The translations under genes and the position numbers were made by a program. Below are positions 3,021-41,239 of a DNA stretch of 64,000 nucleotides, one piece after another. The notes under the pieces are model-generated. The model saw nothing but the letters and a program-made list of their open reading frames with translations. It did no database searches and was not told the DNA's origin. The stretch's first letter is position 1; every line of letters starts with the position of its first letter. This stretch comes from a virus (lineage: Duplodnaviria > Caudoviricetes), in IMG/VR virus record IMGVR_UViG_3300037851_000542, positions 96,001-160,000 of that record. The stretch is one strand, 5' to 3'.

Positions 3021-4301
3021 CTATTTATCCTTTAACAGTTTTAAATATTGCTCTCTAGATTCTGGGATTAGAATTTTATTAGCTTCTGGGTCTTCTAACA
3101 ATCTTTTTGTGCGGTCTTGGAAGGTACCATAATCTATTTTGGAAAATTCTGCTCCGGCTACATCCATTATTTTCTTTGTTTCTAAAAGTCTTTTTTCCTT
3201 TCTTTTTCTAAACGCTTCTTTGGCTCCGTAGGCTGTCGGGTCAATAATATAATCCTCTGATAAAATCTGAGCTATTGCCATTTGATTAGCAACCTCGTAT
3301 CTTCTGACTTTAATATAGTCAGTCAAGAAACTATCTAAATTGTAATTACCCTCATATGGAACAAGCGAATGGGCTATATCTGCATTTAAAAGCTTCGGTT
3401 TTATTTTTAAGCGTTTTGTATATTTAAAATTAGTCTCACTTTCTGGAAGTATATTTTTAATTTTTTGTGAAATTTCTCTAAGAGTGAATATTTGATCTCC
3501 TGCTAAATTGTATGTACCCGTCCTTCTTTTATTTATACTATCGGACATAAACTTAGTTACGTAATTAACATGTACAAAGTCATAAGGTGTGTCGGCAGAG
3601 TATAATTCAACTTCTTTTTCCATCCTGACAGTCAAATCTACATATAGGGGTAAAAAACCAATCCATTTTCCTTTATTTATTTCATTAATATCTGTATCTG
3701 ACTTTCTGCCAAACACTTCAGGAAGTCTTAAAATTGAGTAATCATTTTCATTAGTTTCACAGTAATGTTTTACCAAATCTTCGGCTGCCAGCGCTAGACA
3801 CCCTGAGTAGTGGTTTGGTTTTAATTTTTCAGACTCTTTGCATATCTGACTACTGGAATTCTCATAGACCGAAGAGGATGATAGATATAAAAAGTAAGGT
3901 TTCCTTTGTATAGACGGGGTTCTTACTCTAACCAGTCCAGATAGGGTATGTGTCAAAGATTTTAAAGCATTAATTTCATTTAAATGGTTATCTGAAATAC
4001 CTACAGTAGGGCTATACGCGCCTGCACAGTAGACGACAACATCTATGTTTGAAGATATCAAAAAGTTATTAACTGTGTCTACAGCAGTAACGTCCATTGA
4101 TATCTGATTTAGGTTAAACTTCGCAGTTTCTGGAATATGGATAAAGTTTGAGGATATATTTTTATCTAAAGAATATATGGTGATGTTTTCTTTATTTAAA
4201 AATCTATAAATAAAGTGCCTACCTATAAACCCATTACCGCCTATTACGGCAATACGAATTCTTTGATTTAAAGTATGAGGGTTAAGTATAGAACTAGTCA
4301 T
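3021..4301 (-). CDS. Extended SDR / NAD-dependent epimerase-dehydratase fold protein; catalytic YxxxK absent
   Basis: GGNGFIG Rossmann motif, LSSSSVYE and LRLPEVFG. The active-site helix reads PNHYSGCLALAAE with no Lys. There is a C-terminal extension of about 90 aa. Confidence 0.8.
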   Translation of the reverse strand: MTSSILNPHTLNQRIRIAVIGGNGFIGRHFIYRFLNKENITIYSLDKNISSNFIHIPETAKFNLNQISMDVTAVDTVNNFLISSNIDVVVYCAGAYSPTVGISDNHLNEINALKSLTHTLSGLVRVRTPSIQRKPYFLYLSSSSVYENSSSQICKESEKLKPNHYSGCLALAAEDLVKHYCETNENDYSILRLPEVFGRKSDTDINEINKGKWIGFLPLYVDLTVRMEKEVELYSADTPYDFVHVNYVTKFMSDSINKRRTGTYNLAGDQIFTLREISQKIKNILPESETNFKYTKRLKIKPKLLNADIAHSLVPYEGNYNLDSFLTDYIKVRRYEVANQMAIAQILSEDYIIDPTAYGAKEAFRKRKEKRLLETKKIMDVAGAEFSKIDYGTFQDRTKRLLEDPEANKILIPESREQYLKLLKDK

Positions 4302-4596
4302 TGAAATTAAAATAAAATTTATTAGACCTTACATAGCTTTTTAGTTTTAATATAGTGGAATATTTACTTATTAAGCTTCTATTGTATTGGGTCAGCAGAT
4401 CTCCTATGACATAAAGGTGATCAGAATTAACTATAAAATCTGAATCTATCTTATTTGTAACTTTGTAAATGGTAGACTCTAGTGTTTTGTTATTATACTT
4501 ATAATCGTAAATAATGTGCCCTAAAAGATTGTCTAATTCGGTATCGTTTACATTATTGTTCATATTATTTTTTAGGGAAAGTCTTATATTTCTCAA
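4294..4596 (-). CDS. Hypothetical protein (more likely start ATG at 4563)
   Basis: ORF in the co-directional, tightly packed operon; stop overlaps the next gene start; no motif recognised. Confidence 0.55.
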   Translation of the reverse strand: MRNIRLSLKNNMNNNVNDTELDNLLGHIIYDYKYNNKTLESTIYKVTNKIDSDFIVNSDHLYVIGDLLTQYNRSLISKYSTILKLKSYVRSNKFYFNFND

Positions 4597-4786
4597 TAAT
4601 TACATTGCTATTACCGTCTGTAACTGAAAATTTATATTTCATAGTACAGCAACTTTTACTTATAAACTCTACTTGAATATCAACTTGACACACCTTACAT
4701 TTTATCACTTTTGGGCTATTTATACTAATACTTTTATAATCAAAAGTGTTTATATTATTGCAACTTAAGCAGGAATAAATTTTCAT
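4565..4786 (-). CDS. Small zinc-ribbon protein
   Basis: CLSC and CKVC pairs in 73 aa; overlaps the patatin stop (ATGA). Confidence 0.6.
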   Translation of the reverse strand: MKIYSCLSCNNINTFDYKSISINSPKVIKCKVCQVDIQVEFISKSCCTMKYKFSVTDGNSNVIIEKYKTFPKK

Positions 4787-5586
4787 TTTAGACCTTTTAG
4801 TAGCGTTCTAGTTTTAAGATAATAATTTTCCAAAGATTTTTGTCTTTCTTTTTTAGTAGGGTTTAGTTTCCAACTATCAATTCCCTCACTATTAAGATTT
4901 ATAATATGTATTTTATCACTCTCTTTTATTTGACTTAATACGCTTTTTTCATATAATTTTTGTACGCATAGAAAGCTTCTAGAGATTACTTTTGCAGGTG
5001 AATTTAAAAAAGTAAAGTCTTTAGTTGAAGGTTCGGGTGTGCAGCTCACTGCAAATGTTGGAAATCTACTTTTATGATTATCTTTAAAATATAGATAAGG
5101 TGTAGCTTGCCACACTGCCCCATCTACTAAATAATCACTACCGTGCTTTATTGGTTTAAATAATACTGGGATAGCACAAGAAGCTTGAACAATCTTTGAT
5201 AGATCTTCTTTATCTGGATTTTTAAATATTACGGGGTCTCCTGTTAGTATACTACATGTAACTATGTGAAGGTTTCTAACCCTATCTAAGTTTTTTACCT
5301 TTAAAGATATATCTTTTCCTAGCTTATCTAAGTTGTATATACCATTCTTTAAAAAGCCAACCTTATTAAAAGATCTATATTCATAGAAATTTTGATTTAA
5401 AGCGTACTCAACTAAAGCGTCAAAATCATAATTATATGACAACAGGCTAGCTATAATGGAGCCTGCTGAAACGCCACAAACATTGGCTATTTCCCAATCG
5501 TCTTCGAGCAGAGCTTTTATAGTACCCAGTTGTCCAATGGCTTTAGCTCCACCTGCGCCTAGTATTAAATTACATTTCTTTTTCAC
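4783..5586 (-). CDS. Patatin-like phospholipase
   Basis: GAGGAKA oxyanion loop, GVSAG nucleophile elbow, DGA catalytic Asp motif. Confidence 0.9.
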   Translation of the reverse strand: MKKKCNLILGAGGAKAIGQLGTIKALLEDDWEIANVCGVSAGSIIASLLSYNYDFDALVEYALNQNFYEYRSFNKVGFLKNGIYNLDKLGKDISLKVKNLDRVRNLHIVTCSILTGDPVIFKNPDKEDLSKIVQASCAIPVLFKPIKHGSDYLVDGAVWQATPYLYFKDNHKSRFPTFAVSCTPEPSTKDFTFLNSPAKVISRSFLCVQKLYEKSVLSQIKESDKIHIINLNSEGIDSWKLNPTKKERQKSLENYYLKTRTLLKGLK

Positions 5587-5904
5587 TTAGATTATTCTAG
5601 CCTTTATTTCAGCTATAGTATTTAAAAGTTCATTTATTTTTTTAACACTTTTGCTGTACTCAGAATCTACTGCGGATTGTAGTTGGTTTTGTTCGGGCTT
5701 GCGTAAGTTAAATTTGTATTCTTTACCCAGAGCTAAAGATATACCTTTAGGGTGAGGAACTTTAGATATGACCCCGACCCTTAACTTGCTAGTTAGTTTT
5801 CTGCTAAATTTTAAATATCTATGATAAATTAAATAGTTATTTAACTCTTCTCTGACAAGTGCTAACTCAGTATGTAATTTCCGTTGCTCGGCTGTTAAGA
5901 CCAT
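5587..5904 (-). CDS. Hypothetical basic protein
   Basis: 105-aa ORF abutting the patatin gene on the same strand. Confidence 0.6.
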   Translation of the reverse strand: MVLTAEQRKLHTELALVREELNNYLIYHRYLKFSRKLTSKLRVGVISKVPHPKGISLALGKEYKFNLRKPEQNQLQSAVDSEYSKSVKKINELLNTIAEIKARII

Positions 5905-6005: not shown

Positions 6006-7499
6006 TTACAAACTTTGCTGTGCTAACTTTCTCTGGTTTAAAATCTCTTGCTCTCTTTTATTTTTTAGATTATAAGCATAAGAGAAAACTTGATCAAACA
6101 TTGGTACAACATTAGTGTTCCAGTTTATAGTAGATGTCACCCAATTATAGGCATTGTCTTCTATTTTAGCTTTTACCTGAGGATTATTATAAATGAAGAG
6201 CATTTTTTGTAACATATCTTCCACGTTTGGTAAAGGACGTATAACATCATTATCATTAGGAAATACACATTTTAAGGACAATGTATTTCCAGATGCATAC
6301 AGAACCCCCCTAACTTTTTCTATGTCGTTTTGATCACCGCACAGCTCGGTATGAGACGTATTAGCAGGGGCTATAACGCAGGTTTTGGTAGCAAAAGCCT
6401 GTGTTAGAGCAAATTCCCATCCACCTCCTGTAGCAGAGGTCAATAGTAAATCAGCAGTATTAAATACTTGGTTGAGTTCGGAAATAGATAGCCCGACTTG
6501 CACATTAAAATTTGGAGGAAAAATAACATCCTTGCCTATTACCAATCCAAGACTGTTACAAACTTCAGGAAGATTCCATCCGACATCTACAGGTTTCATA
6601 TTCATATACAAGAAGGTATTATCGCCTACTGCTTTCTTGAACTCTGCAAAAGCCATTAAAGTAGCAGGTAACATTTTTCTTGGTTGATTTCTATTTACGT
6701 TTAAGCACATAAATTTATCAACAAAAGCATCCCCAAACATTACTCTTCTGAATCTTCTGGACTCCTCTTTAGAGATAGGAAAGAATTCCTTTGTATTAAT
6801 ACCGTGGGGAATAGAACTTAGTTTTTTCTCTATATCTGGACAGGCTTCTATAGACAACTGTCTACCAAAATTTAAGTATGTTATCGGGAACTCTACTTTG
6901 TTTATTTGATTTAACCACGCTGCTTTTGGGATACCGTCTATAGGAAAATAAGCTACGATAGGAACGTGTCCTAATCCTCTGGAGTTTAGGATATCCTTGA
7001 TCTTGTCTATAAATCCATCGTTAGATCCTAGTATATTACCACCAATCAGGAACGGATCTTCAAACAAAAAAACAGTGTCAATTAACCTTGGATCGATTGA
7101 GCTTAATAATTGTAAAAACTTATGTTGTCCATATTGGTGAACAGGTGCGCTAGTATGCGCCTGCATAGCAGGCCACTGCTGGTAAATGCCGTTAGAAGGT
7201 GAACCTACTATTTGGTTAGGATCAAATGCATCTCCAAAGTAGTTTATACCAACCTGTCTTACTTCATATTTTCCAGCATAATTATTAAATAAATTAGTAA
7301 GTATTTCCTTCATTACCACACCAAATCCAGTAATCACTAATGGACTAGCGCCCCAGGCTAATATCTTTATGGTCTGTTTATTAGCTACAGGCTGTAACTG
7401 TACTTGTTGGTTTGTTTGCATACTTTGCCTTATTTGATTTATTTGATTTAGAGCCTGTGGTGCATTAGAAGATGTGTTTTTATATTTTTTCTTACTCAT
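6006..7499 (-). CDS. GT4 (GT-B fold) glycosyltransferase-like protein with degenerate EX7E motif
   Basis: TGFGVV N-terminal Gly loop, IPHGINT, NVNRNQPRKM and NTADLL. The EX7E region reads GGGWEFALTQA (Gly and Gln at the two Glu positions). Confidence 0.85.
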   Translation of the reverse strand: MSKKKYKNTSSNAPQALNQINQIRQSMQTNQQVQLQPVANKQTIKILAWGASPLVITGFGVVMKEILTNLFNNYAGKYEVRQVGINYFGDAFDPNQIVGSPSNGIYQQWPAMQAHTSAPVHQYGQHKFLQLLSSIDPRLIDTVFLFEDPFLIGGNILGSNDGFIDKIKDILNSRGLGHVPIVAYFPIDGIPKAAWLNQINKVEFPITYLNFGRQLSIEACPDIEKKLSSIPHGINTKEFFPISKEESRRFRRVMFGDAFVDKFMCLNVNRNQPRKMLPATLMAFAEFKKAVGDNTFLYMNMKPVDVGWNLPEVCNSLGLVIGKDVIFPPNFNVQVGLSISELNQVFNTADLLLTSATGGGWEFALTQAFATKTCVIAPANTSHTELCGDQNDIEKVRGVLYASGNTLSLKCVFPNDNDVIRPLPNVEDMLQKMLFIYNNPQVKAKIEDNAYNWVTSTINWNTNVVPMFDQVFSYAYNLKNKREQEILNQRKLAQQSL

Positions 7500-7500
7500 T

Positions 7501-8748
7501 TCACTTAACCTTTCTAGTTCTAATTTGAGGAGATTGTAATCTATATTGTGCTGATTGTTGTATTTGGGCTACTACATCAGAAGGTAAAGTAGCTAATATA
7601 TCGTCTAGTTTGCTGTTACTGACATCCACGCAATCAAGTAAAGTATTTAAATCTATATAATTGGCTAATATCTTAGCGTTATAAGTCCTATTTGAATTAC
7701 TTAATGTGTAAACTTCCTCTGTGCCATTTGTTATTTTAGAGTTATTTTCATTATCCAGGTGTATCAGAGCCCACTTAGTTAAATCTCTTTTTAACTGTTC
7801 TAGCTCTGTTATTGTATTTTTAATATCTTTATAAATACCTAAAAAAGAACTAGGGGTAACTTCTGGAATTTTAAATGTGCTTCCTACCTGTATTAAACTA
7901 TCATTATAAGTAGTACAAGAATGCTTGAACTGACACCAAGAACAGAATGTACTTAACTTTCCTTCTGGCAAGTAACCGTCTTCGCTATTTTGAATACTTT
8001 CAACAAATTTTAATAATCCATTTCTAACTGAAAACAGCTGTTGCCTAAAACTATAACGCTGAGTATCTGTTCTAGTACTAGTAACAGTTTTTTTAAGGCG
8101 TAAGTAGTTCAACTCAACCACGCGATTAGGAAACTGAGGAAACAAATAGAAGGCAGCTAAATCGTACATAGACAGCTGTTCATCTGTTCTAGCGTCCTGC
8201 CAAGACATAGCAGTATTTGATGTCTTATAATCTATAATTTTAATTGTGGTATCGTCTAACTGTACAATTTTATCAATAAAGCCATTTATTCTAACTCCTT
8301 CTGGAAACTCAATATCAAATTCTTGCTCTACTGCGATTATTTTTTCTGGAACTAAATCTGCACGTCTTCTGTCTAGTTCTTCTTTGATTAACCTTTCACC
8401 TTCTTCGAATAGAGCAACATTATGTATAATAGAGCTGTTGTCTACCACCCTAGACATGTAATCTCTAAATGCTTGATAAGCCTCTTCATAATCTGTAAGA
8501 CTGACAGGGCATCCTGTTTCCATTACCTTTCTGGCTATTACTTCAAGTCCGTGATGAACAGCGCTACCAAAGGTAAAAATTTCAGTATCTTGTCTGGGAA
8601 GCTTATCTATATAAGAGTAATAAAACTTCCTAGGGCACTCTAAAAAAGTTTTATACTTCGATGCAGACATCTTAGTATAAATGGACTTTATCTCCTCTGG
8701 AGTTTTGCCTGTCAATGGATTGGGTCTTAGAGCTATATTATTATTCAT
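7501..8748 (-). CDS. PD-(D/E)XK nuclease, RecB/AddB/Cas4-like, probable Fe-S cluster
   Basis: SASKYKTFLECP, GSAVH, GFIDKI, IIDYKTS, QLSMY and C-terminal CSWCQFKHSC. Confidence 0.9.
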   Translation of the reverse strand: MNNNIALRPNPLTGKTPEEIKSIYTKMSASKYKTFLECPRKFYYSYIDKLPRQDTEIFTFGSAVHHGLEVIARKVMETGCPVSLTDYEEAYQAFRDYMSRVVDNSSIIHNVALFEEGERLIKEELDRRRADLVPEKIIAVEQEFDIEFPEGVRINGFIDKIVQLDDTTIKIIDYKTSNTAMSWQDARTDEQLSMYDLAAFYLFPQFPNRVVELNYLRLKKTVTSTRTDTQRYSFRQQLFSVRNGLLKFVESIQNSEDGYLPEGKLSTFCSWCQFKHSCTTYNDSLIQVGSTFKIPEVTPSSFLGIYKDIKNTITELEQLKRDLTKWALIHLDNENNSKITNGTEEVYTLSNSNRTYNAKILANYIDLNTLLDCVDVSNSKLDDILATLPSDVVAQIQQSAQYRLQSPQIRTRKVK

Positions 8749-40096: not shown

Positions 40097-41239
40097 ATGT
40101 TAAATAAGTTAAATTTATACGGACCCTTAAATCAATTAGGTTATGGGATCTTCACCAGAGGTATCATTAAAGGTTTAGCCGAGAATAATGTATTAAATTT
40201 CTCTGTTTTGCCTATAGGTCAGGTACACATTGAAGACCAAAGGGAAGCTCAACTGTTAAAATCTTTAATAGAAACAATGACTTGGGAAAGAAAAGCCCCC
40301 TCAGTAGCTATTTGGCATGAATTCGATTTAACTAAATTTTCTAGTGATAAACTTATAGCTTATCCAATCTTTGAAACAACTAAATTTAATAAGTCTGCAA
40401 TCTCTCAATTAAGTCAAATGGATGCTGTAATAGTGGCATCTAAGTGGGCTAAATCAGTTGTGACTGATAATATTGGGGATAATGTTCCTGTATTTGTGGT
40501 ACCCGGTGCTTCTGATTTAAATGACGAGAATTTAGAAGAGGACTATAATAAGAATAATATTTTTACATTTATCAACGTTGGAAAGTTTGAAAAAAGAAAA
40601 GCGCACGCTGACTTATTACAAGCGTATAAACAGGCTTTTAGTAATTCTCCTAATGAGACTCGTTTGATTTTGCATTGTTTTAATCCACATATGCAGAATT
40701 ATGATAACAATATAAAGGGACTGTTATCGTCTCTAGGTTACACTGTACACGAAAATAGTACCAATATGGGCGCTATAATTGCGAGCGCAGGTAATGCTCT
40801 GGTATCAATACCTAGGGGGTTTATTCCAAAATCTCAATTAATCAGTCTGTATAAGTACTCACATGTTGGAATTTACCCATCTAGAGGTGAAGGCTGGAAT
40901 TTACCACTAGTAGAATCTATTCAAAGTGGATTACCTTGTATAGCTACAAATTATTCGGCGCATACTGAGTATTTAAATGCAGAGTTTAATTATCCCCAAG
41001 AGCTACTATTAAATAACTTCAAAATGGAAACAGCTTTAGATAATATGTATTTTCACGGAGATCGAGGCTACTGGGCTTCGCCTTCAATAGAGGAGATGGC
41101 TGAAAAAATGCTGTATGCTGAGAAAAACTATGCTAAAATAATGGAAACCTTTGGTAATACCTCTGACCTTATAAAGGCTAAGTTTACTTGGAAAAATTCA
41201 GCTTCCAGCTTATTAGAAGTTCTTGATATCCTCGCTTAG
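40097..41239 (+). CDS. GT4 glycosyltransferase with intact EX7E motif
   Basis: LGYG N-terminal loop, NVGKFEKRK and PSRGEGWNLPLVE; IATNYSA. Confidence 0.9.
   Translation: MLNKLNLYGPLNQLGYGIFTRGIIKGLAENNVLNFSVLPIGQVHIEDQREAQLLKSLIETMTWERKAPSVAIWHEFDLTKFSSDKLIAYPIFETTKFNKSAISQLSQMDAVIVASKWAKSVVTDNIGDNVPVFVVPGASDLNDENLEEDYNKNNIFTFINVGKFEKRKAHADLLQAYKQAFSNSPNETRLILHCFNPHMQNYDNNIKGLLSSLGYTVHENSTNMGAIIASAGNALVSIPRGFIPKSQLISLYKYSHVGIYPSRGEGWNLPLVESIQSGLPCIATNYSAHTEYLNAEFNYPQELLLNNFKMETALDNMYFHGDRGYWASPSIEEMAEKMLYAEKNYAKIMETFGNTSDLIKAKFTWKNSASSLLEVLDILA

Follow-up and report, generated by a model that had tools for sequence, protein, structure and literature searches.

The EX7E motif is widely used as a yes/no test of activity in GT4 glycosyltransferases. 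Its first Glu contacts the donor sugar and its second forms hydrogen bonds with the ribose hydroxyls (PMC3898925, PMC8760489), the weight of each Glu differs among GT4 enzymes, and Arg and Lys residues coordinate the pyrophosphate (PMC8760489). In TviE both Glu residues are essential and the E491A mutant is inactive (PMC8760489). WsaF of Geobacillus, which carries Pro at the first Glu position, is active and its second-Glu mutant E333A is impaired but not dead (PMC3898925), and homologues of GacB of Streptococcus have Gly at the first position and read GX7E (PMC6802508). WsaF and GacB are both active rhamnosyltransferases whose changed motif has been linked to a 6-deoxyhexose donor (PMC3898925, PMC6802508). 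For retaining GT4 enzymes a front-face, SNi-like mechanism that uses no enzyme nucleophile has been proposed, with WsaF as the example (PMC3898925); if so, correct binding of donor and acceptor essentially amounts to catalysis, and the loss of any single residue does not define a dead enzyme. The chlorovirus NY-2A protein B736L, whose structure has been solved (3oy2, 3oy7), binds GDP-mannose best as judged by ITC, and its suspected donor is a GDP-6-deoxy sugar that the viral GMD would produce (PMC4691112).

We analysed a phage protein that resembles these enzymes and in which both EX7E positions differ from Glu. Its gene lies on the minus strand of the window, the 64,000-nucleotide stretch of viral DNA under study, and is a full-length ORF.

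6006..7499, minus strand: glycosyltransferase with a GT-B/GT4 fold, B736L-like phage family (PHROG 2170), 497 aa
6006..7499, minus strand, residues 1-44 of the encoded protein: N-terminal extension, poorly conserved, basic and Q/N-rich

An AlphaFold2 model of the 497-aa protein, for which 81 aligned relatives served as input, has a mean pLDDT of 93.4 and contains two Rossmann-like domains that superpose on solved GT4 enzymes. The top Foldseek match is 3oy2 (E 2e-18), after which come MshA, BshA, HepE, WaaG and PimA (E range 2e-18 to 1e-11). VIA-align superposes residues 43-477 with Z scores of 34.6-28 overall and of 34.6-34.1 against 2jjm, 3oy2 and BshA. A profile of the family matches B736L over its full length (E 1e-31), and the PHROG 2170 'glycosyltransferase' profile covers residues 45-462 (E 7.9e-31). 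Taken together, the quality of the model, the two structural comparisons and the family-profile match to B736L assign the protein unambiguously to the GT4-type GT-B fold. Its sequence is less typical than an earlier note on this DNA had supposed when it called the ORF full length and otherwise typical, the first of which it is: Pfam gives only sub-threshold scores for Glycos_transf_1 (12.1 bits, cut-off 26.4) and Glyco_trans_1_4 (12.8 bits, cut-off 27), and an NCBIfam search of the protein returned zero matches. GT4 homology is thus indirect at the level of sequence, by way of PF00534, which is carried by relatives at 30-38% identity, and of the profile match to B736L. A database search yielded 188 relatives, and the wider B736L-like family comprises 506 representatives at E<=1e-30 in a library clustered at 50% identity.

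B736L is the best match by both sequence and Foldseek and is approximately tied as the best structural match by superposition (Z 34.4 with an rmsd of 2.8 A across 376 residues; 2jjm reaches Z 34.6). Common to the two proteins are the S/T-G-[FY]-G loop, an NxNRNxxRK motif, Ala at position 51 and the fact that each is encoded by a virus with its own Gmd. They differ in that B736L has a canonical GEGFG...E motif with Tyr at the position of residue 346, whereas the phage protein has GGGWE...Q with Phe, and in that the latter carries an insertion of ~40 residues in the N-terminal domain (~85-125) as well as basic N- and C-terminal tails; identity is ~15%. Closer in sequence are orf14 of Tetrasphaera phage TJE1 and gp014 of Synechococcus phage S-CBS4, both of PHROG 2170, which are 27-34% identical over 83-89% of the length and share the domain layout and the invariant residues, but which have GEGWG...E with Tyr346 and are encoded beside terminase, portal and head genes rather than in a replication module. 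WsaF and GacB, although they too lack Glu at the first EX7E position, are cellular, membrane-associated users of dTDP-rhamnose that are not specifically related to the phage protein, and they keep the second Glu and have no compensating Glu at +3.

The rewritten motif was placed by ungapped alignment to B736L and 387 relatives, with G358, G360 and W361 as anchors. The 36-nt string quoted in the earlier note occurs once, at 6396-6431 on the minus strand, and encodes residues 357-368, TGGGWEFALTQA. In this alignment G359 stands at the position of the first Glu and Q367 at that of the second, so that GX7Q does replace EX7E as the note had proposed; written in full, the motif is G-x2-E-x4-Q. A search of a literature library for EX7Q or GX7Q gave no relevant paper.

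6396..6431, minus strand: rewritten EX7E region, residues 357-368, TGGGWEFALTQA; in the model it spans a loop and the N-terminal end of helix 363-370
6423..6425, minus strand: G359 codon, canonical first-Glu position (donor-sugar contact; role from PMC3898925, PMC8760489)
6414..6416, minus strand: E362 codon, relocated Glu, helix N-cap; without exception in the clade and, family-wide, wherever residue 359 is Gly
6399..6401, minus strand: Q367 codon, canonical second-Glu position (contact to the ribose 2'/3'-OH; role from PMC3898925, PMC8760489)
6462..6464, minus strand: F346 codon, covaries with residue 367
40097..41239, plus strand: GT4 with a canonical motif, used as comparator in the earlier note; 17% identical to the 6006..7499 protein

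The comparator at 40097 does read GEGWNLPLVE, as claimed, but its identity of 17% (BLASTP E 4e-4) marks it as a member of another GT4 lineage and not as a close paralogue.

The variant is fixed within a close-knit clade of proteins from jumbo phages. The 55 closest relatives, on contigs of up to 255 kb, are 44-70% identical to the protein (61-70% for the nearest, P0001-P0004) and group with it with 100% support; a precomputed Pfam domain is present in 0 of these 55. GGGWE[LF]xx[TS]Q is found in 58 of 59 distinct clade members, with Gln at 367 in the same 58, so the conservation of GX7Q that the note had asked about holds within the clade. Several sites that are otherwise conserved also changed on the clade stem (D51A, R125Q, Q147E, H300N and M369F). 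Clustering of the library at 50% identity leaves the clade as one representative (826 bits) and a fragment, and the following match scores 372 bits. A single-sequence scan of IMG/VR gave no clade member, and the best matches of a profile scan are at most 41% identical, the protein's own record presumably excepted. Members of the family with Gly359, Glu362 and Glu367, P0123 among them, fall among canonical clades, while the GGGWE...Q clade is one isolated 50% cluster; a GGGWE...E sister lineage that would order the two changes was sought in the family tree and none was found.

To follow the motif across the family we assembled 388 rows from database proteins, from loci in IMG/VR and in metagenomes, and from library representatives. 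The residues at 359, 362 and 367 are E-G-E in 297 rows, G-E-Q in 58, G-E-E in 28, E-[SCN]-E in four and E-G-D in one. Gly359 without Glu362 occurs in 0 of 388 rows, as does Glu at both positions or at neither. The double substitution that turns GEGWG into GGGWE requires four changes on a tree of 257 rows and eight on the tree of 388 rows, which puts the number of independent origins of the swap at about four to eight. Individual cases illustrate this: L001, with the shifted Glu, is 68-69% identical to the canonical L092 and belongs to a four-row group with 100% support of which the other three rows are canonical; L053 is the sister of the canonical P0092; and the P0087 clade, also shifted, is nested within canonical rows. 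An AU test on a 55-row mixture-model tree from which the motif columns had been removed rejects a tree in which the shifted rows all form one clade (delta lnL 470, p 1.4e-16), the group being set by motif state and named after the tree had been seen. Residues that change alongside the swap in all of the independent lineages were sought and none was consistent. A strict either-or rule that is reached repeatedly through two point changes implies that one Glu is needed and that either position can supply it. This pattern indicates that the first Glu of EX7E has moved three residues on and has not been lost; in the model E362 caps the N-terminus of helix 363-370, three residues past the canonical site.

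Apart from the single E-G-D row, Glu367 is 100% conserved in the canonical and G-E-E members of the family, and as the corresponding Ala mutant of TviE is inactive (PMC8760489), Gln367 is a real departure. It is coupled to residue 346: the pair is Y/E in 198 rows, F/Q in 57, Y/Q in one and A/E in one. P0032, a clade member on the 153-kb contig of L085, has both Tyr346 and Glu367 and retains the clade-specific F369; since it keeps F369 and shares 74% identity with its sister P0035, it looks like a point reversion of both residues and not a recombinant. P0224, a representative of a canonical clade, combines Asp367 with Phe346. We infer that Tyr346 and Glu367 are in direct contact in canonical members, and Gln367 could still form hydrogen bonds with the ribose hydroxyls.

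These data bear on whether the Glu shift and the Gln might be neutral drift in a tolerant loop, without consequence for specificity or activity. The first-Glu states do interconvert repeatedly, and one Gln-to-Glu reversion is seen, both of which drift would produce. We regard this as a very improbable account, given that no intermediate with two first-site Glu residues or with neither is seen among the 388 rows even though each step is a single A/G transition, that the state is frozen within each clade (58 of 59 here), that the motif is the most conserved segment and that residue 346 changes along with residue 367.

Ranked by conservation within the clade, the top three windows of 15 residues are 358-372, which contains the rewritten motif (0.88), 261-275, which contains the Arg/Lys motif, and 49-63, which contains the glycine loop of the N-terminal domain.

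6675..6692, minus strand: R270-N-Q-P-R274-K275, an R-x4-K pair, counterpart in the alignment of the Arg/Lys that bind pyrophosphate in GT4 enzymes (role: PMC8760489)
7320..7331, minus strand: T57-G58-F59-G60, N-terminal domain, glycine loop that follows the first strand; G58 invariant family-wide

These three windows are classical GT4 active-site elements. The segment that ends in R270...K275 (NRNQPRK) aligns with NRNTARK of B736L and holds the R-x4-K pair, of which K275 is invariant family-wide, as is R274, and R270 is conserved in at least 90% of members. Invariant in all three motif classes are G58, D148, Y184, P186, D188, G233, N271, R274, K275, G360 and W460. Within the clade, conservation is 0.65 for the acceptor-side domain versus 0.71 for the donor side. 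For L088 versus L090, the single usable pair, dN/dS is 0.067 with dS at 1.75, near saturation; the remaining pairs are saturated at synonymous sites. Decay to a pseudogene was considered and rejected, the ORF being full length, its homologues spanning 88-99% and selection being strong.

The earlier note had gone from the replacement of both Glu residues to a conserved non-catalytic role in place of decay. Conservation and the absence of decay are borne out by the 58 of 59 clade members and by strong purifying selection (dN/dS ~0.07 from that one pair); the non-catalytic role does not follow. In that reading the protein, still able to bind a nucleotide-sugar or a partner, would serve as an adaptor, scaffold or sponge, for example for a neighbouring canonical glycosyltransferase. 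It can draw on the change of both canonical Glu positions, the second of them otherwise invariant in the family, on the further conserved sites changed on the clade stem, on the inactivity of TviE E491A (PMC8760489) and on the canonical glycosyltransferase gene that directly follows in L085 and L090, as would suit a catalytic/non-catalytic pair; a pure nucleotide-sugar binder would likewise retain the binding residues. Weighing more heavily on the other side, the relocated Glu, which the note itself had singled out, is invariant in the clade, obligatory and recurrent, being present family-wide exactly when the canonical first Glu is absent and reached by several independent double substitutions. 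The Gln is conservative, coupled to the change of Tyr346 to Phe and reversible within the clade, both residues having reverted in one member. The pyrophosphate-binding Arg/Lys and the core motifs of both domains are retained, and the acceptor-side motifs of the N-terminal domain are conserved to about the degree seen on the donor side. Retaining GT4 enzymes lack a dedicated catalytic residue that could be lost, and active GT4 enzymes without the first Glu have been published (PMC3898925, PMC6802508). The sequence evidence does not fit a pseudoenzyme, understood as uncompensated loss of residues together with a relaxed former active site, because the Glu is always compensated, the active-site windows are the most conserved and dN/dS is low. 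We therefore consider a non-catalytic role unlikely.

The most reasonable explanation, and the one that we think probable, is that the ORF encodes a functional B736L-like retaining GT4 glycosyltransferase whose donor pocket has been remodelled and not inactivated. In such an enzyme the NDP-sugar would bind to the C-terminal Rossmann domain, where its pyrophosphate would be held by R270 and K275 together with the Gly-rich loop at the start of helix 363-370 (G358-G360). The placement of E362 and Q367 in the donor site we infer from their positions in the sequence and from covariation: E362, as helix N-cap, would make the contact to a donor-sugar hydroxyl that normally falls to the Glu three residues earlier, and Q367, its amide packed on F346 (Tyr in canonical members), would replace the second Glu in contacting the ribose hydroxyls. 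The acceptor would be bound by the N-terminal domain through TGFG 57-60, EDPF 147-150, YFPIDG 184-189 and PHG 231-233, and transfer would run by the SNi-like mechanism that has been put forward for such enzymes. As donor a GDP-sugar is possible, either GDP-mannose or a GDP-6-deoxyhexose to whose synthesis the phage's own Gmd would contribute. As to the acceptor, our guess would be a virion protein or a glycan sooner than DNA.

What is new here is the motif variant; the family was already known and this is not a new kind of system. The 388 sequences form a natural series in which the first Glu stands at either of two sites three residues apart and is never missing, and in which the second Glu can be replaced by Gln when the neighbouring Tyr becomes Phe. 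They counsel caution, in that GT4 proteins should not be called dead on the motif alone, and their relevance is mainly to glycosyltransferase enzymology and to annotation practice.

The genes around the locus add to the question of acceptor and donor.

7501..8748, minus strand: PD-(D/E)XK nuclease gene; ends 1 nt before the glycosyltransferase start codon, an adjacency kept in all syntenic relatives
3021..4301, minus strand: extended-SDR gene (NDP-sugar epimerase/dehydratase-like), directly upstream of polA

Synteny is conserved across DnaN-like, helicase, primase, DnaJ, RuvC, PD-(D/E)XK, glycosyltransferase, SDR and PolA genes, and in seven syntenic metagenome loci the glycosyltransferase is the best conserved protein of this replication block. 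In the four loci that have both flanks its identity to the protein of the window is 51-54%, versus 23-41% for the clamp-like protein, helicase, primase, DnaJ, RuvC, PD-(D/E)XK nuclease, SDR-like protein and PolA. The SDR-like gene is syntenic with the glycosyltransferase in L082, L084, L085 and L086, and its product may act in the donor pathway. A homologue of the canonical GT4 at 40097 immediately follows the glycosyltransferase gene in L085 and L090. Within the part of the record that was searched there are a Gmd and one canonical GT4; the Gmd lies ~8 kb from the glycosyltransferase on the same strand and is interrupted, with two matched stretches in one 674-aa frame, and synteny of Gmd with the glycosyltransferase was not found within the 10-kb flanks of relatives. 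Canonical relatives in cultured phages lie beside terminase, portal and head genes, together with NDP-sugar genes and methyltransferases, a context that fits virion glycosylation; in the GGGWE...Q clade the gene sits in a replication module instead. Mycobacteriophage glycosyltransferases that decorate capsid and tail proteins (Freeman et al. 2023, as cited in PMC12619734) offer another point of comparison, but they are encoded in the structural operon.

This relocation raises the possibility that the clade, now part of the replication module, adds a sugar to a modified base of phage DNA, with the rewritten donor site reflecting a new sugar donor. Such a DNA glycosyltransferase would be a special case of an active enzyme. 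The conserved synteny of the replication block, the start of the gene 1 nt after the nuclease gene and the position of canonical relatives by head and terminase genes are what one would expect of it. GT4-like folds with matches to 3c4q, 3mbo and 7qsg have moreover been described in putative, partly experimentally confirmed phage DNA glycosyltransferases (PMC13326640), and these three structures are among the best structural matches of our model. The GT4-like DNA arabinosyl- and glucosyltransferases of RB69, DLP3 and RL38J1 resemble the protein in fold and context, with a GT-B fold, MshA, BshA and 7qsg as PDB neighbours (PMC13326640) and phage genes that lie near nucleotide-metabolism or replication genes. 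Their genes, however, cluster with those for a dCMP hydroxylase/hydroxymethylase, a nucleotide kinase and a dCTPase, none of which was found here. Nor did searches of the 140-kb record, which is ~47% complete, find a ThyA-like hydroxymethylase (PF00303), ThyX (PF02511) or TET/JBP (PF12851), the last search run without a positive control. With a pI of 6.1 and a net charge of ~-4 the catalytic core is mildly acidic, and in jumbo phages gene order says little about function. On balance a DNA acceptor seems to us rather improbable.

Equally tentative is a broader proposal, that GGGWE...Q with F346 marks a true functional switch, in which a virion-glycosylation GT4 was re-tooled in a jumbo-phage lineage for another nucleotide-sugar, such as a phage-made GDP-6-deoxyhexose, and for a new acceptor in the replication module, possibly DNA. 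Should this doubtful scenario be true, the hop of the Glu between i and i+3 would be a simple two-state switch of donor specificity that is reused in GT4 enzymes. The locus also draws attention to an uncharacterised but strongly conserved transferase that is fixed in the replication module of one freshwater jumbo-phage lineage. 'Moraphages', a freshwater jumbo-phage lineage, have several core glycosyltransferases and DnaJ (PMC12619734), and the phage described here may be related to them.

The stem of the jumbo-phage clade to which the glycosyltransferase (GT) belongs, in which the EX7E motif reads GGGWE...Q (G359/E362/Q367), carries changes beyond the motif itself: D51A, R125Q, Q147E, H300N and M369F, at five sites that are otherwise strongly conserved in the B736L-like phage GT4 family. 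Taken together, Q147E and E367Q leave the net charge unchanged.

Window 6006-7499 (-): GT; stem-changed residues 51, 125, 147, 300 and 369

Among family relatives outside the window, many canonical members carry a homing-endonuclease intein (Intein_splicing plus LAGLIDADG) within EX7E, so that their match to the profile is split between positions 357 and 358. In another relative, P0126, an intein lies immediately ahead of the Arg/Lys motif NRNQPRK (residues R270...K275); the family's two most conserved motifs are thus both intein insertion sites. Some canonical members also bear a SEC-C zinc-binding motif at their C-terminal end (PF02810; P0059 matches at 8.9e-10), an addition that is unusual among glycosyltransferases.

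Intein inside EX7E: P0071, P0112, P0124, P0127, P0149, P0191, P0214, P0243, P0253, P0263
SEC-C motif at the C-terminal end: P0059, P0061, P0062, P0064, P0070, P0074, P0082, P0083, P0094

Around the GT, an extended-SDR gene lies immediately upstream of polA, a position kept at ~35% identity in four syntenic loci (L082, L084, L085 and L086). The interval between the GT and this gene, window 4294-5904 (-), is variable and here holds a patatin-like phospholipase and two small ORFs without counterpart in the syntenic loci.

Window 3021-4301 (-): extended-SDR gene, epimerase/dehydratase-like (Pfam Epimerase, 5.5e-18)
Window 4783-5586, within 4294-5904 (-): patatin-like phospholipase (Pfam, 1.8e-22)

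At two of the loci carrying GT relatives, a second GT4 gene begins 8 nt ahead of the GT end. Its homologue in the window's phage, at 40097-41239, is ~33 kb from the GT and adjoins tail genes.

L085:11424-12671 and L090:5104-6351: second GT4 gene, 21-22% identity to window 40097-41239

The record also encodes, ~2-4 kb before the window start, a GDP-mannose 4,6-dehydratase in a single open frame of 674 aa. Its profile is matched there in two stretches, 1-230 and 229-332, a pattern consistent with an intein.

G000:C1:114911-116818 (before the window start), on the GT's strand: GDP-mannose 4,6-dehydratase
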